This document shows positions 9,964-58,146 of a DNA stretch of 64,000 bases, piece after piece. The position numbers and the translations under genes were made by a program. Each line of letters starts with the position of its first letter. Within the stretch, counting starts at the first letter, position 1. Location of the stretch: assembly GCF_001447785.1 (NCBI RefSeq), contig NW_015172553.1, forward strand, positions 1,900,128 to 1,964,127. The letters run 5' to 3'. Source of the stretch: Gekko japonicus (taxonomy: Eukaryota). The notes beneath the pieces were generated by a model that was not told where the DNA came from, did not search any database, and saw only the letters and a program-made list of their open reading frames with translations.

Positions 9964-34183
<24,220 letters not shown>

Positions 34184-41847: not shown

Positions 41848-42670
41848 ATGGAATCAAACTCTGTAAGGAGTAAAGTCCCGGCTTTCTTATCTGACTTGGG
41901 GAAAGCAACCCTGAGAGGCATAAGGAAATGCCCCCGCTGTGGCACCTACAATGGCACCCGTGGGCTGAGCTGCAAGAACAAGACCTGTGGCAACATCTTT
42001 CGCTATGGCGCTTGGAAGCAGGCTGGTGTTGACGCAGTGAAAATTGTCACCGGCTCAGACTTGCAGGTCTACTCAGTGCGTCAAAGGGACAGGGGGCCGG
42101 ATTATCGATGCTTTGTAGAACTGGGAGTTTCGGAGACCGCCATCCAGACTGTAGATGGGACCATCATCACACAGCTCAGCTCTGGATGCTGTTACGTCCC
42201 ATCCTGCTTGAAAGCGGCCACACAAGGTGTGGTGGAAAACCAATGCCAGCACATTAAACTGGCTGTGAACTGCCAGACCGAGGCCACCCCACTGACCCTG
42301 AAAAGCTCTGTCTTAAACTCAATGCAGGCCTCACCAGAGATGAAGCAAACACTCTGGCAGCTGGCGACAGAGCCCACGGGGCCTCTGGTCCAAAGGATTA
42401 CCAAGAACATCCTGGTGGTGAAGTGCAAAGCCAGCCAGAAGCACAACCTGGGGTACCTCCACGTCTCCTTTGCTCACAAAGCTGGCCCCAAGAATGTGAT
42501 GGAGCACCGCTTTTTCTGTTCTTGCCAGTCCTTGAAAGCCAGCAAGGCCAGCTCTGCCAAAGAAGAGATGGGCCAGAAATGCATCCACTTCTTTGCCTGC
42601 ATCAGCGCCTTTGCCAGCGATGATAGTTTGACGCAGGAGTTTGTGGATTTCCTCAGCTGTGATTCCAGCG
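41848..42670 (+). CDS. C2orf42: C2orf42 first coding exon (823 nt coding; exon starts at 41836)
   Basis: CPRC...CKNKTC zinc finger plus two further Cys/His clusters; donor g|gtaggt. Confidence 0.95.
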
Positions 42671-45600
42671 GTAGGTAAAGGCAGAGAATGGCTGAGAGTT
42701 GGGTTGGCAGAATCCTCCACCTGGGTGAAATGAAAGGTTTGCCCTTCTTAGAGGGGGTTCCCCCAGGCCTTAACGCTGGTACTTGTGAAGCCGTCATACA
42801 GAGGAATTCTGGAGGCAGCCTAGTAGTGGGCATGGAGGAGAGGGGATCCTGCTTCAGCATGAAGCAGCAGAGTCCAAAATACACATTGTCTAATATGTTT
42901 AAAGGGGTGCCATAATTTTCATAAAATAAAAACAAGCATGTGTCAGCTATTCCTGTGTCTTTCTGCTCACTGGGCAAAGCGCTGGAAAGCAGGAGCCAAT
43001 CCCCGCACTGCCACAAGGGCCCCTGGGTAACCTTGGGCTATGGTGGTCGACTCTGGGTTGGGAAATTTTGCCAGAACTGGGGGTAAAGCCTGGGGAGGGA
43101 GCTCTGCAGGGTGTCAAGCCACACAGTCCACCCTCCAAGGCAGCCCTTTTCTCCAGGGGAACTGATCTTTTTAGTCTGGAGGTCAGTTTTAATTCCGGAA
43201 ACTCTCCATGCCCAGCTGGAGGCTGGCAACCCCACCTTGGGCTGGTCTCTTTCTTTCACCTGATCCTACCTGTTAGAGTTGTTGTGTGAGGATAAAAATG
43301 GAAGGGGAAACCATATAAGGTGCTCTGATCTCCTTGGAGGAAGGATGGGGTAACAATGTACCGGATAGACAGACGGCATCCTGAGCTATTGGTTCAAATA
43401 ATTCCCACATACCTTTGCAAGTAAAATCCTGAAAAACTTGCTAAAAATTAAAGCTGTAAATTCAGCAAAGGAGGCCCCTACAGATCTCTGCCCCTGTGCT
43501 TTTAGCCCTAAAATCCTTCCATGTGGAGCAGAAATGAAGAAGAAGAAGAGGAGGAGATTGGATTTATATCCTGCCCTTCACTAACCAAAGGAGTCTCAGA
43601 GTGGCTTATAATCTCCTTCCCCTCCCCACAACAGACACCCTGTGAGGTAGGTGGGGCTGAGGGAGCTCTTTTGAGAACTGCCCTTGAGAGAACAGCTCTG
43701 AAAGAACTTATGACTGACTCAAGGTCACACCAGCAGCTGCATGTGGAGGAGTAGGGAATCAAACCCGATTCTCCCGGATTAGAGTCCAAGCTCCTAACCA
43801 CTACACCAAACTGAAAAGGGTGATGCTGTTGTATTTCATAAACCTGATCGCTGTATGGTGATAAAATACAGACATTTCTAAACCATCAAATGTTTAGCCT
43901 TTTCTCTCTCCTGACTCCAGGTCTGAAGCCAGTGATAGGAGCCCAGCTTGTTTGCCAGCCAGAATCTGCTCTGCACTCTGCACAGGCTGCTGCCTCCAAG
44001 GCAAAGAGGAAGAAAAAAGATGAAATAGCGGGTGAGTGTCTTACAGAGTTACGTTAGCACAGACCATTGAACAAAGTTTGAGTCCAACAAAGTTTAATTC
44101 TGGATATAACCTTTCATGTGCATGCACACTTCTTCAGATACATTGAAACAGACTTCCTCAAGCCTTACATGCATGCACACAAAAGCTTATACCTTGAATA
44201 AAATGTTGTTGGTCTTAAAGGTGCCCCTGGATTCAAAAGTTGTTCTGTTGCTTCAGACCAACACAGCTGCGCACCTGAATAGCCCACTGTAGTCAGTGCG
44301 CTTAGTCTGGAGTAAGTGTGCCTAGGATTGCAGCGTATCTCATCTGTTCTTCTCGGCAGGTTAGTGTTCCATGTTGATTTGGGGTGGCCTTTGCTCCTGT
44401 CTACAGGGCCTGTTCCAGAGTGGGACCAGGTCAAGCACTTGCCAGGATCCTGAGATTCTGAAAATAGTATAACCGTTCTGCCATTCTCACTGCACAGGGT
44501 CCCCCAAAAGCTCAGAGGCGGGTTGACAATTTGCCTACCAAGAGCACCTTACTCAAAGGCCTCAAGATCCTGGCTTCATGGCCAGAACCCTGTGAAATCT
44601 GCCGGGGGGGGGGGGGATCCCAGTTTCTTAACTCTTATGGGCAGAATTCATTTTGCTAATCACAGTAGTGTTCTGGATTTCATTATTTCAGTCTGATTAG
44701 ATACTATACTATACTGATTAGATACTACTAGTCCGATTAGATAATATAAAGATCTTGATGAACATATGGTCTGATTTGGTATAATGCAGCTTCATGTTAA
44801 CAAAAAAAGTTATTAACAAAAAAAGTTATGTCGAGATGACTTCCGGTCTGTGGATTGGCGATGGCGGTCGCTCTCCCCAGACTTCGGGGGAGCGATTAGC
44901 ACACCAGCGGCATGGAGGGGTGTTACCTCAAGTGGCACCCCCACGGAGCCTTTGCGATAGGCTCCAGGCCAGAGGGCTTTTGAGGGTTAGCCTCTTCGAC
45001 GGCTCGATGCCGGAGATTAGAGGCTTTCCTCCACCCTGACGGTCCTGCCGTTGTGTGACCTTCGGGCACAAGCTAATTCAACTGGGACAAGCGTGGGAGA
45101 TCGAGCGGAATAACGAATGATGTGAGCGAGGTCAGAGATATGACCAACAATGAATGTGAGTTCTAAGTAAACGGATTATTCTGGGGGGGGGGAATGAATA
45201 CCCCCCCGGTGGGAAAAGCGGAGCACAAAGAGGGACGCCTCTTAAGCGCATGGACAGCTAAGCGTATCGAGGGGGGAAGGGAGGAAACAAATAGCGAGAT
45301 TGTTTTGAGAGACTTACTTAAGTACCGAGAGGGACGGGACGAGTTTTTCGAGCCCCTGCGAAGTGGTTTGGAACTGTAAACAAAGTTGTAAAATGGCAGC
45401 TTCCCGAGGAAAGTTAAAAGCGAAACCGGGCAGCCAGAGCCCAAGAGCGGAAGAGGGAGCAGACGTCATGAAGATGTTAGCGGATATGCTCAAGCTGATG
45501 ATGGAACAACTCGATGGTATTAACCAGCAACTGACCTCGTTAAACCAAAACTTTGCTTTGCAGCAGTTTCAGCTGGCAGAAACGGAAAACAAAGTGGAGC

Positions 45601-48600
45601 ATGCGAATGAGAGAATCACAGAGATGGACACCGCAAACAAGAAAATGAAGAAGAGAATGGGAGATGTTGAAACAAAACAAAACCTCCAAGAAAACCGTTT
45701 GTTACAGCTGCAAATGGAAAAGGCTAACATGATTCTCAGATTCCAGGGAGTTCCTGAAACTGAAAAAGAAGATTTGAAGAAGACTCTGGGCGAGATTATT
45801 GCTCCAGTAACAGGCTTATCAGCGGATGAAATAGTAAAAGATATGGAGACAGCCTACCGGGCTTACTCCAATTGTGGTCAGATTTGCAAGAAGACAGACC
45901 AGAGATGCTATATTAAAGGCAATGTCAGCAACTCCACTGAAATTGGGGAACACAGCCATTAAGACTTTAAAAGACATTCCAATTGAAATTCGACAAAAGA
46001 GGAAAAGCTACAAGGATCTAATCTCTTTTCTTCAAACTAATGGAATTCAGTACTGGTGGGCGATTCCTGAAGGGGTCATCTTCAAAATCAACGATAAAAG
46101 AGAGAAGATTGACTCCATTTTTAAAGCCAGGGAATTCTTGAGACGTCAGCTGGGATCGGGGGAAGAATCCAAAGAGGAAGAAACCAAATCAAGTGACTCT
46201 GCCACCTCTGGAACAGATGAGGACTCTGTGGTTGAAACGAGTGCGGGAGCAATGAAAGCTGACTTCAGAGATAGAAAACTGAAATAAGGGCAGAAGGACT
46301 TTGAAACTTGCCTTTTGAAGTAAAGAAGATGCTCAGAAAGTTCTCTCATAACAACTAACATACTAATATAGAAGCTGTGGGGAAAAAAAGAACTCTACAA
46401 GTATATTGTGTTAGTAACACTTGTATTACTACCATTTAGTTTAACATGGAGATGATCTCCCACTCTTGGGTTTTTAGTTAGTGTAGGTATCTTTCCTTTA
46501 TCCATAGTTGTAGGCCCCCCCCCAAGTTTCTTTGTAGTTATGTAGTCTATGCAAAAATAATAAAAATACCCCTGTGGGTTTTTTAAAAAAAAAGTTATGT
46601 CAGCTGACTCTAGGAAAGGCACTTTGTGAAGGAAACCAGAAGCCTGAGTATAGGGCCTGCTTTTGTGGGGCAATGTCTCTGTGATGTAATCCTGTAAATT
46701 TTTCCATGCTTTACTCGTTCTCACATATACACCCCCCCCACAGGAATATCAAGCTGAACAATTCTGTTAGCTTTTAGTGGATGAATTCATGCTGAGTAAA
46801 TTTTACTACAGGGAAGGAGGGGAGCATTTTGCAAGGAAGGGTAATTGAGTAAAGATTATCACTTTGTAGTAATATTTCCCTGAACAAGTTAATTCTGTAA
46901 AGCCTCAACAGATCTTGGTGTTTTTTTCCTTTTGTTTCTTGTACTGCTGCCATTATTGGCAGTATTCGGAAAGTGGGAGATGTAAATGAAATGAGAATTC
47001 TTGAGGACTGTCCTGCATGCCTTGTAGATGGTCTCCCACTAATTCTTCTGGGTTGGGGGGAGCTGCTGGGCATATACAAATTCTGAAGCTGTTTAAAACT
47101 TGACTTTAAGGCACACAAGCAAGCAGCCCCCTCCTGTCTCAAGATGTGGCAAACAGCAACCTGAGGAAGAGTGGCCTGAAAAAGCCATCAGTTGCTTCTC
47201 TTAAAAAACAAGGTATGTTTCAGCTAGAGTGCCTCTCCCCCCGCCCCCCGCCCCCCAAGTCTCCACAGGAATACTTGGAAAGAAAAAAACACTCTGAACA
47301 CAAAATTGGGAAGACGTCTGAGAGCAGTTTCTGCAGAAGACCCTGTGCTACACCTACAACATACCACTTTTCAGGGTAAACAATGTTTCAAGTGTCTTTA
47401 GTGTTTTGCAGCCTTCCCTTCATACATTGACCTTGACACTGGAACATACAGTTTCTGGCAGTGCAACCCTATGCAGTGTTACTCCAGTCTAAGCCCATTG
47501 TCTTTGGACTGGAGTAACTCTGTGTTGGACTGTATTGTAACTCTCTTAAAGCTGGGAGTTGCTTTTCAAAACAGGGTGGGGGAGACTGGATGTTAGGGTA
47601 AGGCTTGGGGATTCGCCTGTTCCTTCTGCACTCACAGAAGGCTAATTTGCAAACATTCTTGTATTTTGGCTTTTTGACACTGTGTATAAATTCTGAGTAT
47701 TGTATATCTGCTGTGATCAGGTGCTTCAAGAGCAATCCAAATGCAGCTGACCAACCAGGTATAGTGGACCACCAGATACTTCACACATAAACCTCGTATT
47801 TTTGTAGATCAAGAATGTAGCAAGGATAGGAAGTCTCCACGCTATACCTGGTGCTTTGTGGGTTTCAAGTAATGCTGGGCTGTGCTAGGACCATGCGGAA
47901 TGCAGAGCTAGCCTAGCCTTCATGTTGGATGTGGGGGGAGGCAGTGTGTAGATCTCAGTTTGCGGTCTTGATGATGAGCAAATAAGCTCTTGTGTGCTGA
48001 GCTTGACTTTTCTTAACTGGAAATAAAGCCTGTGGGTTTCAATAGGACTGCCTCCCAGGAAAGTGACCTTAGGATCAATTTGTAGGTCTGGAAAGTGCTT
48101 TGTTCTGGTATAGTTCTAGTATCTCAGCAGCCCTGAGAGGTCGGCTGTTAGGATTGTTTCCAGACAGAAGTCTGAGGCTCCAGTACTATCCAGGAAGTCC
48201 CTTCCTAAACTCAGGCCTGGATTTCTTGGGTGGCTCAAGTTCAGCAAAGTCAGCCAACTGAACTACAAAACCAGCATGATGGGGCTTTGCAGCTGAAGTT
48301 GCCCCACGGCCAGCGATTCCACAGGAGGTTGTGACGTTGAAAGATGCATTGCAGGCCAGAGGGGAGAGCCTTTCCTCTGTAAATACCCCTGCCTGTTGTC
48401 ATGGTGATCAGTTCTGGCCTATAATTTTTATCCCACCTCCAGAAAGTTCAGTAGTAGTCAGAAACAGTACTAACCAATCCTGTACATCTGGTTGTTGTTT
48501 GTGTGTGTGTGTGTGTGGGGGGGGTTACATGATGGGAGTGATCAGTGTGTTTCTACCAAGGTTTGCATTTTAAAGTTTTGTGACATGAAAGCCTTTCCTT

Positions 48601-51600
48601 TTTCTTAGCTTGCAATCAAGTGCTTGACGAATCGCAGGTGACGTTGTCTTTCCAGGAGTGGCTGGCCAGCGTCACTGAACGCATCCATCAAGCCATGCAT
48701 TACCAGTTTGATGGTAAGTCAGGAGGCACTCAGGCCAACCGCCCTGTCTTCCTTGATTTTGATTTGATTTATTTGATTTATACCCCAGTCTTCCTGCTAA
48801 GGCAGGCTCAGGGTGGCTTCCTTGAATGGTTGTCCATATCAATGGATTACACTTATAAGAGGGAGTCTTCCTGCATAGCCTTTGTATATATAGTGATTTT
48901 TCCAAACAGAGGTAGAATTACCCTCTCTCTATTTTGCTTCTGAGTGCCAAACTAGATATTACAGCATCCACAGGGCGGACACCCAAGCCATGTTAGAGAA
49001 GCATTTGGCCATTTAAAAGTGCCCCCCCACACACACACACTGTTTTGGCACTTGAAAAGGTGTGGGGATGAGGACAAGATTGCCTGGCCCCACTGTGCTG
49101 TGGGCCCAATCAGGACCTGGGCCTTCACAGCATTTTTTAATGAGACGGAAGAATGGCTTAACAGCCGCAAAGTCAGTTGGGAAGCACACTTGGGAAGTTT
49201 AGCTTGCATGAATCTCTCTCTCCCTCTGCTTTATCAAGCTCTAAAGCAGGAGTCGCCAGCGTGATGCCCATGGGCGCAGTGGCACCCACTTACACTTTTC
49301 CTTGTATCCGCCAAGTGTTTTTAGAAAATGGGCAGAGCCAGGTGGGGTTTTTGCCAGTGGCTTCTGATTGGCCTTTGGAGATTTGATCATGATGGAGTGA
49401 TCAGTGTGTTTCTACCCAGGTTTGCATTTTAAAGTTTTGTGACATGAAAGCCTTTCCTTTTTCTTAGCTTGCAATCAAGTGCTTGACGAATCGCAGGTGA
49501 CGTTGTCTTTCCAGGAGTGGCTGGCCAGCGTCACTGAACGCATCCATCAAGCCATGCATTACCAGTTTGATGGTAAGTCAGGAGGCACTCAGGCCAACCG
49601 CCCTGTCTTCCTTGATTTTGATTTGATTTATTTGATTTATACCCCAGTCTTCCTGCTAAGGCAGGCTCAGGGTGGCTTCCTTGAATGGTTGTCCATATCA
49701 ATGGATTACACTTATAAGAGGGAGTCTTCCTGCACAGCCTTCGTATATATAGTGATTTTCCCAAACAGAGGTAGAATTACCCTCTCTCTATTTTGCTTCT
49801 GAGGGCCAAAATAGATATTACAGCATCCACAGGGTGGACACCCAAGCTATGTTAGAGAAGCATTTGGCCATTTAAAAGTGCCCCCCCCCACACGCACACA
49901 CACTGTTTTGGCACTTGAAAAGGTGTGGGGATGAGGACAAGATTGCCTGGCCCCACTGTGCTGTGGGCCCAATCAGGACCTGGGCCTTCACAGCATTTTT
50001 AAATGGCTGAGTTCTTCTCTAAAATAGCATCAGCGTGCATGAGTGTGCTAGGTTTGGCCCTGAGACGGAAGACTGGTTTAACAGCCACAAAGTCAGTTGG
50101 GAAGCACACTTGGGAAGTTTAGCTTGCATGAACCTCTCTCTCCCTCTGCTTTATCAAGCTCTGAAGCAGGAGTCCCCAGCGTGGTGCCCATGGGCGCAAT
50201 GGCACCCACTTATACCTTTCCTTGTATCCGCCAAGTGTTTTTAGAAAATGGGCAGAGCCAGGTGGGGTTTTTGCCAGTGCAGCTTCTGATTGGCCTTTGG
50301 AGATTTGATTGGCTGTTCAGGGTTTTTTCAGTGTTTCTTTGGCAGCCATGGATCTTCACTGTGTGACTGAAAGTAAGCTGCAGCAGCCATGTTGTGTCTG
50401 GCTTCACCTCCCATGGCAGCTGTTTTTTGGCAGCCATTTTGCGGCTGTGCCCACCACGCTGAGTCAGAATCCCAAAGGTCCTCGCAAGCAGTGTTCCCTC
50501 TAAGCTGAATTAGTGTGAGCTAGCTCACAGTTTTTTAGCCTCCAGCTCACACATTTCTGTCTTAGCTCAGGAAGGATGGCTCCAGAGCAGACTGATTTAT
50601 GCAGCAGCCAAATCGCTTGCTCACAACTTTAATGCCAGTAGCTCACAAAGTAGAATTTTTGCTCACAGGACTCTACAACTTAGAGGGAACGTTGCTCGCA
50701 AGCTGAAAAAGGTTGGGGACCCCTGTTCTAAAGCTGAAGCCACTACAGGACCGTGTTAATTGCTTGGAATCCTTTAGAAGTTCTCATCCTCTCCCCACAA
50801 GAGGGTGCTCATGTGTCACAGATTCAGTGACACTAAAGGAGAAGATTATACCTAGCATGTGCAGGGCTGGAGCATTATGAAGAACGGGAAGGCCCTGCTT
50901 ATGATCTCATTTATTTGGAAAAAGGAAGATGTTTCTTTAGCGTAATTGAATCTGCAACCCACTCCCTCTTGGCTAAAACACCATTCAGTTTATGCAAAGG
51001 AGTTCCTGCTACAAAAAGAGCCCTGACTGTTTATATAACTGCAAAGCCAGGCTTAGGTTCTGTGTGAGTGCATGGGACCTGTTTTTGATGACTTCGGCCC
51101 CAACACCACAATTGTCAGCTTGAGCAGGTGCCTTTATTTTCCATGTTAAATTTTTACCATGTTTTTATTGAGCAGAATTCCTACATGAACCCGCAAGTTA
51201 GTTAACATCTAGCCAGTGAGCCCTTCTGATGGTACTGACATCTTGTCCAACATAGTTGGCAACAGCATTTGTGCATTTGTTGAAATCCCCTCAGTTCTGG
51301 AACAGGCTTCCTGGAAGACTGCTTCTCTCTTGTCATTTCGTAAAGGATGTAAAACCTTCCTTTTCAGGCAGGCACTGAGATAAACATGGGGTCATTTTCT
51401 GCTTCAAATATTTTTATGTTAGGTGTTTCGGATTGTTTTTATGGATTCTTATAAGCCGCTTTGAATGAAGCACTGACATTTTTGTAAACCAAAGGAATAA
51501 ATACAGATTTGAGAAACATTTAGATTTTATTTCTAAGAGGTCCATCTGCAATTGCATCGCAGTCTGGCATTTTCTGTTTTAAAACCCTTCTCCCTCCTAT

Positions 51601-54600
51601 TTCTGTTACTTGTGCGGTTCCTTTTTCTCTCTCTTTTTTGACAGTCACCAAGGCATTGATTCCCAGTACGCGCGTAGCAAGAAGGCATGGAGCATGTCCA
51701 TTCGTAAGCAGAGTTATACCCTTCTAAGTCCATTGAAGTCAATGAGCATAATGGGTATAGCTCTCCTTAGAATGGCTCTATATGTTAATTAAGAACCTAA
51801 AAGTTTAAATGAATTCATTAAAATTCATTAAAAAACAATTAAAGGCCTAATATAGCCTTAACTTAGATTAAAAACATACAGTAAAACAAAGACCTTGTGC
51901 GACCCTGACCAGACACATTTCGGTCATATAGCCTTCTTCAGTGGTCAAGCATAAAAATTACACAGTGTCTCCAGACATTGCAAAAATATTACAATAATAA
52001 ATCAATATAGGACCAAGTTGGAATTATGTATTAATCCATACCCGTGGCTTAAGGCAGAGATATGTTAGGGAGGCCTCAACTGAATTCAGTTTGTGCGCAA
52101 GTCAGGTGCACATTTCCTGAATGGTAGTTCAGTTGTGTATCTCCCTGATTTTGGTCCAAAGAAATCAATCCAAAGTGCAGTATGGAGCCAATGTGGCATA
52201 GTAATGTATAGACATCCCCCCCCCCCTATTTTTGTTCTTGTGGCTCTGTATGTTGCCATGAAGGATGCAGGTGCTACTCGGTGCCCAGCTGCATTTGAAT
52301 GCTCTTCTTTCACTACCGATACTATACTAACCCAAAAGGAGAGTGGCCAGGCTTGTGTGGTTTCCCTTTTGGTGGTAGGGCTGCCGGTACAGTGCAGTGG
52401 CAATGGGGCTTTCACCTGGCAGGTTTCCCTGCAGTGCCCCTACCCAAGCAGTGACCATTCCCCCTCCTGTGGGTCACTGGGGCTTTTCCAATTTTTTAAT
52501 TTAAAAATCAGCAATTAAATATTATAATATTGATATAATGTAATGGCGACACTTGTATCAGGTTTTCTGAATTCCCAGGTTTTTAAAAAGTAAGTCTGTT
52601 GCCCTTTTTGTTGCTGAGATGTGTCTTTCCCCTGACATCTCCACAATGAAAGGGGCTAGAGATGTACTTTTTTAAAGGGAAAAAAATGGGAACTGGGAAT
52701 TCAGAGCATCTTATACACACATTTCTATTATTCAATTGCCAGTTTAAAACAAACAAAAAAGGCTCCCAATGGAAGGGGAAGGAAATCCCCCTAAGAGGGT
52801 CAGATAAAATAGCTACCATGTGGGTGAAAAAGATCCAAACTTTCCCTCCCACACAGCAGCCAATCCAGGTTTTACAGCAGTCTTTCCCCAAACTTCACAA
52901 TGAAGCAGGTTTGGGAAAGACTAGAAGAAAGCTGGGGAAACCCTGCAAGGTGTACAAATGCGCCATGAATCTGTGGAGGAGCAGGGGGGAAAACTTGCTT
53001 TCCAACAGCATTGAACTTGGGGCAAATACCCTGTGTGGAAATTACTGAAGACTTCCTTCCTTCCTTCCTTCCTTCCTTCCTTCCTTCCTTCCTTCCTTCC
53101 TCCCTCCCTCCCTCCCTCCCTCCCTCCCTTGTAATGACCTTTCTCTCTCTCCATATCAAAAGTTCAACCAAGAATACCCCTCTCCCCACTCCATGTATTT
53201 GCAGGCATTACGCAGCATGATCACACAGAGATGGTTCCTCTCTGAAGCTTGCCTTAAAAAGCCCACCCTCCCCTTGTGAAGACATCTGTTTATTCACCAC
53301 TTGTTAATCTTTGCACTACCCATTAAAGCAGAGATGAATGGTTTTTGTTTGTTTGATTTAATGCTCATGACTTTTAATCTGTGATCAGTCCTTAGAACTG
53401 ACCTTTGTCTCAGATAAAATTCTATATGGGTATTTTTTTCTTTTTCAAACCCCTTCTTGTTTGTATGCATGTGTGTGATTTTATACAGGCAAGCCAGAAC
53501 CGCTGGTATTCCATATCCCACAGTCTTTCTTTGAAGCCCTGCAACAGAGGATTTCTGTTGGGAGCACCAAGAAGCTGCTCCCAAATTCGACCACAGGTAT
53601 CTAATCTTTATAGCCCCTTCCCCCCCCCAAGCCAGTTGTGATAAAAATCAACTGCATCGTCGTCATGGGTCAGACAGGTTGAGCCAGTTTTCCCACAAGA
53701 GCTGGACTTTTGTTATATAGAAAGGAGCAGATGATTGGAGGGGACTGCAGCTGACAAGGCCTGGTTTTCAGGATCCTGTAACTATAGAATGGAGCTGAAG
53801 CAAAAAAAACCTTCATAAAACCTTACGGTATGTTTGCAAGCCTTAACAGTTAGCTTGAAAGTTGAAATTCCTAATAAGTTCATTTGCTTCCAGCTTTTGT
53901 CCGGAAGGACGCCTTGCCCCTGGGTACCTTTTCCAAGTATACCTGGCACATTACCAACATCTTGCAAGTCAAACAAATCTTTGATACTCCTGAGGTAAGA
54001 CTTATTTGTCCAGGACCTTCCTCTGTTATCCAAATAGGGTTGGAAGGGATTGATGGAGGGAGGGAGGGGGAATCCAAGTATGTCCATTCAAATAAGCAGT
54101 AGATTGTTGTCTGTAGGTCTAGATTTGATTGATAAGGGCCTGACCTTGTGTGGTGTCCTGTGGTTTGGCATCAACATTCTAGAACTGTCTTGTGGCCGCA
54201 CTCCAGGACTGTTGCATTCTGAGGCTACAGGAGGTGATCAGGCACCCGGGAAAGGAACAATTTTGTCCTGTTTTCAGCCCCTGCTCTTGGTTCCCCTTCC
54301 CAGATGCCCTTGGAAATTACCCGCAGCTTTATTCAGAACTGGGATGGCACTTACGAGCCCTTCAGGTGCCCCAAAGTTGAGGTGGAAAGCATCCCGGAGA
54401 CTTATGGCCGTCTGGAGAAGCAACCAGTTCTCCGGCCCTTGGAGCTGAAAACCTTCCTGAAAGTTGGTGAGTCCACAACTCGGTCCATTTGCAGCTGGCC
54501 TTAGGGGAGTGGCGTGCAAAAAGAGAACCTCGCTTCCCCCATGTGTGACATAGGAAGAGGCTCTCTAATGCTCCTTTCTGGTTTCCCTCCTACCAGGCAA

Positions 54601-54805
54601 CACCTCTCCTGATCAGAAGGAACCCACGCCTTTCATCATTGAGTGGATCCCTGATATCCTCCCCCAGTCCAAAATCGGCGAGTTGAGGATTAAGTTTGAA
54701 TATGGCCACTACAGGAATGGCCACACCACTGAATACCAGGAGCAGCGGCCTTCCCTGGAACAGGCTCTGGAGCTCATGCCTCTCACCACCATCACATTTC
54801 CTTGA
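41848..54805 (+). CDS. C2orf42: C2orf42 orthologue (N-terminal treble-clef zinc-finger protein); 573 aa with one copy of the duplicated exon, 608 aa with both
   Basis: join(41848..42670,43921..44031,47111..47212,48609..48713 and/or 49468..49572,53489..53596,53894..53994,54304..54466,54597..54805). Reads [48 protein letters not shown]...[15 protein letters not shown] introns; lies downstream of TIA1 as in mammals. Confidence 0.93.
43536..43812 (-). mobile_element. Full-length squamate tRNA-derived SINE (Sauria/Squam-like)
   Basis: Minus strand starts cagtttggtgtagtggttagg (A box), has a B-box-like gggtttgattccc, and ends in a (ctt)n tail. Confidence 0.8.
43921..44031 (+). CDS. C2orf42: C2orf42 coding exon 2
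   Basis: [37 protein letters not shown] (basic NLS-like run). Confidence 0.88.
44060..44280. mobile_element. Penelope-like inverted pseudo-LTR relic containing a minimal hammerhead motif
   Basis: A minus-strand CTGAAGA...GAAA core at 44104-44141 faces a partial plus-strand copy at 44168-44235. Confidence 0.65.
44833..46586 (+). mobile_element. ORF1-only L1-like retroelement (half-L1/HAL1-like) with 15-bp TSD
   Basis: CpG-rich 5' UTR; coiled-coil + RRM-like ORF1 at 45393-46287 (frameshifted near 45870); AATAAA near 46558; TSD aaaaaaagttatgtc at 44818-44832 and 46587-46601; no ORF2. Confidence 0.8.
45393..46287 (+). pseudogene. L1-type ORF1p, frameshifted
   Basis: Heptad-rich N-half, then [47 protein letters not shown] and [13 protein letters not shown], which resemble L1 ORF1p RRM and C-terminal motifs, in two overlapping frames. 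Confidence 0.75.
47111..47212 (+). CDS. C2orf42: C2orf42 coding exon 3
   Basis: [34 protein letters not shown]. Confidence 0.88.
48609..48713 (+). CDS. C2orf42: C2orf42 coding exon 4, copy A
   Basis: [35 protein letters not shown]; 105 nt, phase 1/1. Confidence 0.8.
49468..49572 (+). CDS. C2orf42: C2orf42 coding exon 4, copy B
   Basis: Nucleotide-identical to copy A with identical splice sites. Confidence 0.8.
50167..50725. mobile_element. hAT-type MITE (CAGGGGTCCCCA family) carrying a nested MITE
   Basis: Ends caggagtcccca / tggggacccctg; flanks ctctgaag / ttctaaag. Confidence 0.78.
50489..50694 (+). mobile_element. ~206-bp hAT MITE, nested, with perfect 8-bp TSD
   Basis: TSD CTCGCAAG at 50481-50488 and 50695-50702. 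Confidence 0.88.
51907..51946 (-). ncRNA. Degenerate minimal type I hammerhead ribozyme motif (Penelope-like element relic)
   Basis: GACCA-CUGAAGA-AGGCUAUAUGACC-GAAA-UGU-GUC-UGGUC with a 5-bp stem I (GACCA/UGGUC). Confidence 0.55.
53053..53128 (+). repeat. (CTTC)n(CTCC)n compound microsatellite
   Basis: Pure pyrimidine tetranucleotide run. Confidence 0.95.
53489..53596 (+). CDS. C2orf42: C2orf42 coding exon 5
   Basis: [36 protein letters not shown]. Confidence 0.93.
53894..53994 (+). CDS. C2orf42: C2orf42 coding exon 6
   Basis: [34 protein letters not shown]. Confidence 0.94.
54304..54466 (+). CDS. C2orf42: C2orf42 coding exon 7
   Basis: [54 protein letters not shown]. Confidence 0.94.
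54597..54805 (+). CDS. C2orf42: C2orf42 terminal coding exon
   Basis: [42 protein letters not shown]...PLTTITFP*. Confidence 0.94.
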
Positions 54806-55860
54806 ATGTGAGCGTTCATTGCACAGCTTGGTTTGCACAGCCCCCCACTCCGCAGCTGCTTGGCATAGTGCCGGTTATGAGTAGCCAATCGACTGGAGAG
54901 GTTGCTGGAGCTCAGTGAGGCTTATAGTACCATGGTAAATTCTCCCTGCGTCCCGCAGGCACCATATTCCATTTCTGCTCTCTCTGAAATTCTTCCCAGT
55001 GGTCTCCATTTCCAGGATTGCAAAGGAGACTGCTCACAGATGGGGCAGAACATTTGGCTGTTCTACTGAACTGTAATTCCTTTACTGGTTTACCTTGCAA
55101 TATATTTTTTAAAAATAAATTAAGACGGACCGACCCCAGTGTTCTCAGTTCAGTCTCTCACATGGTCACGAGAAAAATGAAGAGGAATATACAATCTCTT
55201 GTCAGTTGCTGGCAATTGTAAGTCTGAAATATGCAGGTCGAAGTGGTTCCTGTCCTAATTTACCTCTCCTCAGACATGTCAAAAACCCAGGATGGAGTAA
55301 ACAGGGTGCTGTCTCAGGCTTGCTGTCTATAGCAAACGGCGCATAGCTTGCTGACGGAGGAGCCAGCAACCCTGGAAGCGAACTTCTCAGCAAAAGTGAA
55401 GTGTATCAGCTATGACCCTGGAGCACAGGGGGTCGATTGAACCTTAAGTTAGTTGAAATGAAGACAGTAGGTAGCTTGTTTCTGAGTTCTGAAGTAGAGA
55501 GGGGGTGGGGGAAATGATCCGGGCAAAGTTACAAAGGCCACAGGGCTGCCACCAAAAACAGCAGCCCTGAGTCAGGTTCCTCCCCAACTTCTGAAGTACA
55601 GTTTACCTTATGGTACAGTCACACAGTCATCTCTCGCATCGCTACCCACCACCACTTCATTGATGTGATGTAGGATTCCAAGAAAATACAGGTCCTAAGA
55701 TCATTGGGACACAGGTAAGTTGAACTCCACATTACACAAAGGTGAGGAGGAAACTGGAGGAATGCCACGTTTTGGGGCCGACCCAAAGAATTTGCGACAT
55801 GGGCCTATTCTGCATCTAACATTCGCTCCACTGTTTGCGACTCATAGAATTTGCAACATG

Positions 55861-56194
55861 GGCCTATTCTGCATCTAGCATTCGTTCCACTGTTTTACCA
55901 AACCCACCCTGGAACAGAAATTCCCCTCTACATTGCATGCCACTTTCACTTTCTTTGATTGTCGGATTTTATGGTAGCCTCCACACTGCGTGCCCGGTTT
56001 CAATTCCTTTGCTCTCTTGGTTTTATGGTACTGTCTGCATAGATTTATGGCTATTTTATGGCTGTTCAGGGGTGACTCCGCAGTCAGTACAGTGTTGGCT
56101 TAGGATATTTGAATGTGGTTTTGAGCAGCATCTTTTTCTGTTCCAGTGTGGGTTTGGTACAACAATGGAGCAAATGCTAGATGCAGAATGGGCC
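55861..56194. mobile_element. MITE with ~60-bp TIRs (PIF/Harbinger-like ends)
   Basis: 55861-55920 is inverted at 56135-56194; left end partly tandem-duplicated at 55788-55846. TSD not clean. Confidence 0.6.
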
Positions 56195-58146
56195 ATTGAG
56201 TCTTGCCCTGGGTGGAGCTGTGAGTGTAAGAAAGTGTTGGCTAGTGACACTAGAGGGCAGTGTTTGGCCTAGGGAGCAAACAAGGCTGTTTCTCCAGCAT
56301 TCCTTGGCCGCCTTTTTGATGGGAACCTGACAAAAGATACCAAGCAGCCCTTCCTTCACGAGAAGTAACAAGCACAGCACAGCTCAGCTCAACTTGCGAC
56401 TGGGTTTTCTGAACAGGCAACTTCCTTGTACTGTGATGTTCATGTCATTTACATTAATTAAACTACCCAATTTAGTTTTAATTGACATGACACCTGATGG
56501 ATCACCTGAAATTTATCTCCAGAATTGTTAATACAATGACTACCAAGTCATTGGTCTCATCCAGTAAAGGATCCGTGAATCTCCCTTGGTGACAGAGAGA
56601 TACAGGGGAAATTGCTGGCCTTTGTCATTTCAGTGGAGAGATACCATTTATTCTTTCTTGGTCCCAGGAACTAGGGTACAAGCTGACACCAAAGGCTCCG
56701 TGTTACAGCTTCTTGCCTGCCAGTATAAAGCACAGGAATGCTGGTGAAAAGCCTTAAAATCATGGCCTGAAATATCTCCCCACCACCACCTTTTATTTTG
56801 TAACATCTAGCCTGATTAAGAATTGCAATGAAGTTGAAAGCTTGCAGTTTTGTGTTATTTTGGTTGGTCCTAATAAAGGTAACATGTGAGTTGTGCTTTG
56901 GTTTTGGATTTGGATTTTGGACCAGCACTGCTGCAAACAATTTTTGTTTAAAATTAATTCACTATCAACTTTTGCTGTGGCTCAGCACTGGCCTTCCGTC
57001 CGTATAGAGGAGTGAAGCTTCTGCCCCTGGGAATTTATTTATTCGATTTATACCCTGCCTTCCCCGCCGAGGCAGGCTCCGGGCGGCTAACAAGGCCTTT
57101 TGGCTTCATACACAATCAAATAATAAAACCATTTAAACAACTCAAAACCAGTTCAAATCAGAGGGTGAACTGTTCTGCTTCTACTGTTTGAGTTGTACAG
57201 TTGTGCCCCCCCCCCTTCCCCAATCCAGTTACTTAGCAGTAAGCTGCTCACTGAATTCAGTAGGACTTTTGCATCTGTCTTTTGGATTGAAGCATATACC
57301 TCTTAGCCCCATCCTTGTTAAAAGCACACTGCATCCTAATATCTGGTTACACAACTTTCAGCTGAACAATCCATAAAATAATTTCTCCACCTGCTAGGTA
57401 AATCTCCAAATTCTGCAAAAAGTCCAATGGAGGACTGGTCACAAATCAGAAAACAAGTAAACCTGGAAATAAAACATAGCACACATTTGATTTGGCAAAT
57501 GTAGCTGTTTTATTAAGACAAGCGGAAGGAGCATTCCCAGATAAACTTGCAGAGCATTCCCAGATAAACTCGCAGAGCATTTCTCACCATCATATAAAAA
57601 TGCCATTGCCCTTAAAAAAATAAAAGCAAGCTCAGCTTGTGTATAAAACCTATCTTTTACAATTCAACTTGCACTTCCTGAATGTACATTGCTCTAGTTG
57701 TGCCTGCTTAGCTGCTTCCTCCTGCTTTTAATGTGGCATTTTGCTGCTAAATTGCAGGTGCAAGAAATGTCCCAAGGGGAGGTTCCTCTTTCTCAGGGAC
57801 ACGCTGGCCTCAACACTGCAGAGTTCCCAGTGGGGTTGGTGCCACTCCTTGCTTTGCAGTTCTGTGTGGATGGATTAGAGGATGGAGCGGTTAATCACTG
57901 GCAGGTATCAGGATCAAGTGACTGCTGGATGTGTATCTGATCCCCTTCCAAATCTCCCTGGAGACACAAACCCTTTCATCACTGACCACTGATGTTTCTT
58001 TTGCTGCTGTTCTGTCACCCAGAGAAGATCAGGAGGTACTGCGCTAGCAAAATTAACTTGGCTGAGCTAGATATGAAATGCAAAAAGCTGATTCGACTAT
58101 TTCCCCAACTTCAAGATTGTGGGAAAGCATGGCATCACTTGCAGAA

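Follow-up and report, generated by a model that had tools for sequence, protein, structure and literature searches.

A gap-free tandem doublet around a C2orf42 exon in a Gekko japonicus assembly: joined alleles or a duplicated exon?

Introduction

The gene C2orf42 lies with its eight coding exons (41848–54805) in a stretch of 64,000 nucleotides of the gecko Gekko japonicus (RefSeq assembly GCF_001447785.1, contig NW_015172553.1, positions 1,900,128 to 1,964,127 of the forward strand). This whole stretch is called the window here, and all positions are counted from its first letter. One of the exons, 105 nt in length, is found twice in the assembled sequence, each time within one of two nearly identical units. 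A preliminary description made from the letters alone interpreted this doublet as tandem or mutually exclusive exons at an early point of their evolution and named a false concatenation of two haplotypes as the main alternative. In this study, the doublet was compared with sequencing runs of other animals, with homologous proteins and with known cases of false and true exon duplication. We consider it probable, at roughly 0.58, that the gecko was heterozygous here and that the assembler set its two alleles of a single-copy stretch one behind the other as the two units.

Materials and Methods

Public sequencing runs were searched with words from the window, and four of the 24 runs listed were compared with the locus: the DNA runs X1 and X2 and the RNA runs X21 and X22. 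Among the runs listed, none contained half or more of the window words (best 0.38), and no holder was recorded as RNA. The comparison covered positions 46850–49387 with one unit only. Because this reference stretch contains a single unit, a tandem junction would appear as a backward joint. The DNA runs were available as contigs only, which show presence, not absence. For the RNA runs, the part read amounted to about 12% of X22 and 3% of X21, with three reads as the minimum for a joint to be listed.

Results

C2orf42 and its 105-nt exon

With one copy of the 105-nt exon, the frame of C2orf42 is open and encodes 573 aa, identical over all 573 aa to the Gekko japonicus protein XP_015276600.1 and 12–36 residues away from the proteins of six other geckos; the seven named gecko C2orf42 proteins have 572–573 aa. 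The one-copy protein carries an N-terminal zf-tcix domain (PF14952) above the cut-off. This domain, full-length orthology and conserved exon phases place it in the C2orf42 family, for which a precomputed domain is available (PF26708) and whose profile was matched by none of the solved structures. The frame remains open with both copies, as the preliminary description had stated, and then encodes 608 aa, 105 nt being a length that keeps the frame.

The 105-nt exon belongs to the better conserved part of the protein (Table 1). In 53 distant rows of a 93-row alignment, its region has an identity of 0.45 at an occupancy of 0.94, and the two exons before it reach 0.17–0.25 in the same rows. Over 25 full-length amniote homologues, the exon peptide is 88% identical. 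Annotated isoforms lacking the exon were found in 13 cases among the 120 homologues listed, 11 of them lacking it alone and two together with a neighboring exon. A doubled exon peptide was found in none of the 248 homologues holding the peptide (345 fetched), and a search scored on this region, with 375 hits, ranked no doubled form top among the 120 matches listed. Among the papers listed on C2orf42, none treats exon duplication in its title or the opening of its abstract, and in the available part of a study on tandem duplicated exons (PMC9741552) the gene is not mentioned.

As a side observation, the upstream coding exon reaches about one third of the depth of the 105-nt exon in X22 (7 junction reads in, 35 out), which may reflect skipping, 3′ bias or filtering. 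Loss of this upstream exon is also the commonest short isoform among the homologues listed.

Structure of the doublet

In a self-BLAST of the window, the doublet is the top repeat (E 0.0 and 3e-109), far beyond chance. By global alignment, it consists of unit 1 with 860 bp and unit 2 with 922 bp in head-to-tail orientation, meeting at a blunt junction (49387/49388) with neither microhomology nor N. Coordinates, orientation, gene, phases and lengths in the preliminary description all proved correct. We counted exactly 20 substitutions between the units, where about 20 had been estimated (14 transitions and 6 transversions), and four indels of 1, 4, 57 and 2 bp, the longest having been given as about 58 bp. 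The divergence amounts to 20/860 sites (2.3%), or 19/512 outside the first 348 bp, and the substitutions are unevenly spread: the first 348 bp carry a single one, the following 265 bp carry 9 and the final 247 bp carry 10. Also, each unit carries derived changes of its own, as described before: in unit 2 the target-site match is broken at 50163, and in unit 1 the terminal repeat is broken at 49255 and the 57-bp segment is missing. The right arm of an inverted repeat (49993–50039) lies for the most part in this segment. Sequencing error is an unlikely source of the differences in view of the transition excess and of matches to alleles of other animals.

A letter-for-letter comparison bore out the identity of the two exon copies and of their splice sites, including 40 nt of acceptor context and 20 nt of donor context, as well as the 754-nt length of the intron separating them. 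A point overlooked so far is that the identity extends beyond the exon: the longest identical run of 317 bp comprises the exon and 212 bp of intron. Such a run has p 0.0003–0.002 under an even spread of differences, and its intron part alone p about 0.008. For zero differences in the 105-nt exon, the chance probability is 0.04–0.07, the 3′ intron parts differing by 3–4%. Because the run takes in 212 bp of intron, the identity of the units is that of a tract and not an effect of the exon. As claimed, the exon copies are free of differences; the hint of selection drawn from this is weak, and selection on the exon is unsupported.

Table 1. Positions of the doublet, its parts and the adjoining features in the window.
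Feature	Position	Strand	Remark
Upstream coding exon	47111..47212	+	Joined to the 105-nt exon in 7 X22 reads
(GT)n-G8 tract	48500..48524	+	Next to the left breakpoint, on its outer side; putative docking arm in the RNA
Unit 1	48528..49387	+	Runs on from the left flank; end lies within a transposon
Identical tract	48559..48875 (partner 49418–49734)	+	317 bp; includes 212 bp of intron beside the exon
C2orf42 coding exon, copy 1	48609..48713	+	105 nt, phase 1/1; residues 346–380, start of the conserved C-terminal region
C-run/(AC)n tract, unit 1	49022..49040	+	Predicted pairing with the upstream GT/G tract, −44 kcal/mol
Miniature transposon, truncated copy	49247..49387	+	End of unit 1
Unit 2	49388..50309	+	Runs on into the right flank
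C2orf42 exon, copy 2	49468..49572	+	Same letters as copy 1
C-run/(AC)n tract, unit 2	49881..49903	+	Predicted pairing with the same GT/G tract, −52 kcal/mol
57-bp segment	50004..50060	+	Present in unit 2, X1 and X2; missing from unit 1
Miniature transposon, whole	50167..50725	+	Terminal repeats, 8-bp target-site duplication
Downstream coding exon	53489..53596	+	Reached by RNA reads scored beyond the donor

The doubled stretch begins 3 bp past the (GT)n-G8 tract and has its other end in a very-high-copy stretch of a miniature transposon, which we assume to be of the hAT type. That the junction cuts through this transposon was confirmed, with starts at 49247 and 50167 and an end at 50725. For the part 49315–49387 of the truncated copy, the summed contig depth is about 100,000. 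Nested in the transposon, at about 50489–50694, lies an element of about 206 bp with terminal repeats; copies of it at 17393–17600 and 18341–18546 are 88–93% alike.

DNA runs of other animals

In X1, a contig of 2068 nt extends unbroken from the left flank across the left breakpoint and the exon to 48819, which is a single-copy pattern, and a second contig (48951–49339) contains the 57-bp segment. This segment is also present in a 541-nt contig of X2 over 48858–49339. At 48901 (X2) and 49213 (X1 and X2), the sole contig covering the site carries the unit-2 letter. Among the six joints listed for X1 and X2, none connects a unit end to a unit start.

The 541-nt contig of X2, which covers the diverged part, has a depth of 39.6, compared with 63.9 in the flank. 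In the depth model, in which 126 of 513 31-mers are common to both units, a heterozygote for unit 1 and unit 2 is predicted to give 39.8, a homozygous single copy 64 and a hemizygous one 32; carriers of a duplication are predicted to give 48, 72 or 80. This depth is the strongest hint at two alleles, though an indirect one in which the second allele is deduced from depth alone.

Over the left flank (46850–48485), 20 sites out of 1636 bp (1.2%) are listed at which X1 and the window differ, a count that leaves out four repeat-dominated rows (47467, 47477, 48051 and 48066); the contig's own tally is 23 differences in 1970 bp. All four runs differ from the window by two synonymous changes in the upstream exon (47121, 47127), and X22 by two further synonymous changes in the downstream exon (53502, 53520). 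The window's animal thus seems to come from a lineage or haplotype diverged from the animals of the runs. Between X1 and X2, differences are few among the flank sites listed. For further genomic copies, read-through open reading frames were searched, which gave 21 hits with one gecko-like sequence (P0346), informative at one site and silent on copy number.

At 2.3%, the units are further apart than the flank and X1 at 1.2% (Fisher p 0.044). This is not expected of a duplication younger than the split from those animals. It leaves deep alleles, an old duplication that collapsed in the lineage of the runs, or a duplication formed across two diverged haplotypes.

RNA evidence

The RNA reads show ordinary splicing, not exclusion. 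In X22, the upstream exon is joined to the 105-nt exon, and 31 loose ends match the downstream exon. All reads scored at 48715 carry the letter of the next exon (35/35 in X22, 1/1 in X21). These 36 of 36 scored reads are in line with one copy per transcript, in donors that may carry a single copy; identical copies are indistinguishable in them. An exon-to-itself joint, which had been proposed as the signature of double inclusion, was not among the joints listed for the two RNA runs. Because backward-going reads fall outside the tally at 48715, the bound for this joint is at most 2 reads per run in the part read.

Predicted RNA stems

Folding predicts two sets of intronic pairings in a two-copy RNA. 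The C-run/(AC)n tracts of both units can pair with the single GT/G tract upstream of the doublet, at energies (Table 1) to be compared with −10.6 ± 4.3 kcal/mol (minimum −31) for random intron windows of 33 + 31 nt. In addition, a left arm present in each unit is predicted to pair with a single right arm, which unit 2 alone has kept, at −43 and −50 kcal/mol in windows longer than those of the background. In the two-copy RNA, copy 1 is hidden by the predicted fold of minimum energy, and 22.5 kcal/mol are needed to keep both copies hidden. The stem between the GT/G and C/AC tracts (48500–49040) is predicted to enclose the exon also when there is one copy (z −3.5), where it might favor skipping or back-splicing. 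The exon is included in X22 although a single copy suffices for this stem to be predicted, so any control of splicing by the stems would be putative.

Other elements in the window

A second large doublet (207/212 bp) is located at 2841–3047/3048–3259; its halves differ by 3 substitutions and 2 indels, of which one is a change in homopolymer length. The doublet begins at a transposon-like end and looks like a second allele pair. Two exact head-to-tail doublets of 35 bp, non-repetitive and 6 kb apart, are found at 21887–21957 and 28052–28122. Their equal length, with a rough chance of 0.015–0.026 calculated post hoc, suggests unmerged k-mer overlaps of the assembler. Short and slightly diverged doublets occur at 25727–25797, 29216–29273, 55779–55895 and 57529–57581 (periods 38, 28, 59 and 23).

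The intronic region 45309–46287 contains two overlapping long frames that gave no Pfam match above the cut-off and that look like a frameshifted remnant of ORF1 of a long interspersed element. RRM-coding exons (PF00076) of the upstream gene are located at 31365–31697; judging from the gene order, this gene is probably TIA1.

Discussion

If the two units are two alleles of one stretch, C2orf42 would have a single copy of the 105-nt exon and encode the ordinary 573-residue protein. The doublet could then have been formed during assembly by rightward extension from the left flank on one haplotype, stalling in the very-high-copy transposon, and by leftward extension from the right flank on the other haplotype, stalling at the GT/G tract. 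Both extensions would cover the same 860 bp or so, and the overlap would not have been merged because indels sit 6 bp and 28 bp from the extension ends. The geometry is that expected of a gap filled from both sides along different haplotypes; we infer the manner of the join as well as the heterozygosity of the assembled animal. A simple bubble, whose arms have identical ends of k length, was considered and rejected, as the two units have no more than 6 bp in common at their left end and 28 bp at their right end.

False duplications with similar features have been described. In the available part of PMC2864568 (Kelley and Salzberg 2010), overlapping haplotype contigs are set side by side and no mRNA has two copies of the exon; the available part of PMC9516828 (Ko et al. 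2022) reports false exon gains, some with gap-free junctions due to incorrect gap filling. The C2orf42 doublet resembles the heterotype duplications treated in these parts of the two papers in its near-identical side-by-side copies, its allele-like differences and the involvement of one exon; two-copy mRNA was likewise not seen, and the ends lie at repeat-rich obstacles. It differs from them in having no N gap between the copies. Among the papers listed on negative gaps, gap-filling artefacts and gecko diversity, nothing usable was found, and none describes the exact case of a gap filled from two sides on different haplotypes. The falsely joined haplotypes that had been named as an alternative become the best-fitting reading, in favor of which we count the X1 contig, the X2 depth, the high divergence of the units, the ends at obstacles with a blunt junction, the other near-perfect doublets of the window, the RNA reads and the homologues with one exon peptide; the junction without N gap does not suit it. 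For Gekko japonicus, the sections available of two papers describe a short-read assembly built with SOAPdenovo and SSPACE (contig N50 29.6 kb; PMC4673495) and a PacBio assembly (contig N50 2.0 Mb; PMC10776941). An artefact is much more likely if the assembly used here is of short reads; 64 kb free of N are more typical of a long-read assembly.

Several observations weigh against joined alleles, and some of them would suit a real, unselected tandem duplication private to the lineage or haplotype of the window, which we regard as possible, though doubtful. Such a duplication could be old, with a conversion tract of 317 bp and with single-copy alleles elsewhere produced by unequal crossover between the units, or it could have formed between two haplotypes already diverged; it would be tolerated, since usually one copy would be spliced in and the protein would remain unchanged. 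N letters are absent at the junction and from the whole 64-kb window, most false pairs in the available part of PMC9516828 have a gap between the copies, and duplications within contigs are rarely mis-assembled according to the part of PMC2864568 at hand. Diverged doublets of 23–59 bp at 91–96% identity are common in the window, so natural doublets do occur there. The allele of the runs is mostly unit-1-like at its 5′ side and mostly unit-2-like at its 3′ side (12 polarised sites, 7 read from tables and 5 inferred from tallies of change types; p 0.024), one of the inferred sites being backed by the read-through protein of another gecko. This switch favors the collapse of an old duplication, and a recombinant allele fits it too. 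At the 3′ end, the allele of the runs differs from unit 1 at 11/199 sites (p 0.0002 against the flank rate). The depth of X1 over the diverged part is 70.5, between the values for a single copy (64.1) and a heterozygous duplication (72.7). For X2, bookkeeping of depth leaves no contig of this locus over the exon, and its contig 9 stops at 48557, 30 nt past the left breakpoint, where a junction would break the graph; the stop is also 1 nt before an A/C difference between the units. Pruning may also have removed a short piece with the junction from the contigs, given its position next to a high-copy repeat. The runs depart from the window at both flanks of the doublet, so their animals may belong to another population or species and are unable to refute a private duplication.

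The unusual length of the identical tract and the predicted hiding of copy 1 in a two-copy pre-mRNA would also be in line with a private duplication. Its natural-looking changes, however, are just as expected between alleles, both of its ends lie at assembly obstacles, the X1 contig is unbroken with no junction joint among those listed in X1 and X2, and the depth of X2 fits alleles and not extra copies. Also, double inclusion would likely be harmful because the exon is well conserved among amniotes.

That the duplication has been kept by selection, with both copies spliced into a 608-aa protein or with mutually exclusive exons already under regulation, appears very improbable. The intact splice sites of both copies, the preserved frame and the identity of the exons next to diverged 3′ intron parts would agree with it, yet identical exons encode no alternative protein, chance alone gives the absence of exon differences with p 0.04–0.07, and the identical tract reaches into the intron. 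The earlier proposal that tandem or mutually exclusive exons are here at the beginning of their evolution found no support either: a junction joint was not listed for the two DNA runs, nor a double-exon joint for the two RNA runs, and no member fetched of the C2orf42 family holds the exon peptide twice. In the assembled sequence, the doublet is similar to mutually exclusive exons, as far as the available parts of PMC9741552 (Martinez-Gomez et al. 2022) and PMC9013439 (Ivanov and Pervouchine 2022) describe them, in that its homologous exons are neighbors, agree in length and phase and have intact splice sites. Most of those known pairs are ancient, and their peptides are distinct, whereas the C2orf42 copies are identical and were seen in this sequence only, with a single-copy pattern in X1 and no support from RNA. 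Regarding mechanisms of exclusion, the 754-nt intron is not limiting and 105 nt cause no frameshift; competing stems are predicted.

According to the part of PMC6071210 (Ivanov and Pervouchine 2018) available, the docker/selector model proposes that competing RNA structures are born by duplication of one stem arm. The predicted stems resemble this model in two ways with strong pairing in both, one unduplicated upstream arm facing two duplicated partners and two duplicated left arms facing one downstream right arm, and this likeness would speak for regulated exclusion. In contrast to the model, the upstream stem spans the exon instead of being confined to one intron, the arms are low-complexity or transposon-derived, and the pairing with its role in splicing is a prediction; moreover, the same GT/G stem is predicted around one copy, and X22 nevertheless includes the exon. 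We consider it very improbable that the doublet is a real duplication with an inborn splicing switch. In that case, one arm of each of two pre-existing intronic stems would have been copied and the spare arm in unit 1 lost by the 57-bp deletion, one pairing would hide copy 1 and the pairing that crosses it copy 2 so that the new exon was masked from the start, and unequal crossover would have left chimeric single-copy alleles segregating in the species.

If the units are two alleles, they are a warning that an allele-level tandem doublet free of gaps can mimic a new exon, with several such doublets in this window. If the duplication is real, it is a tandem exon duplication of a known kind, in which identical exons add no new protein sequence. 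Should carriers use the competing stems, the model in which mutually exclusive exons originate by duplication could be tested at its first step and in a vertebrate, and a doublet with an inborn switch would capture the birth proposed for such exons in a living species.

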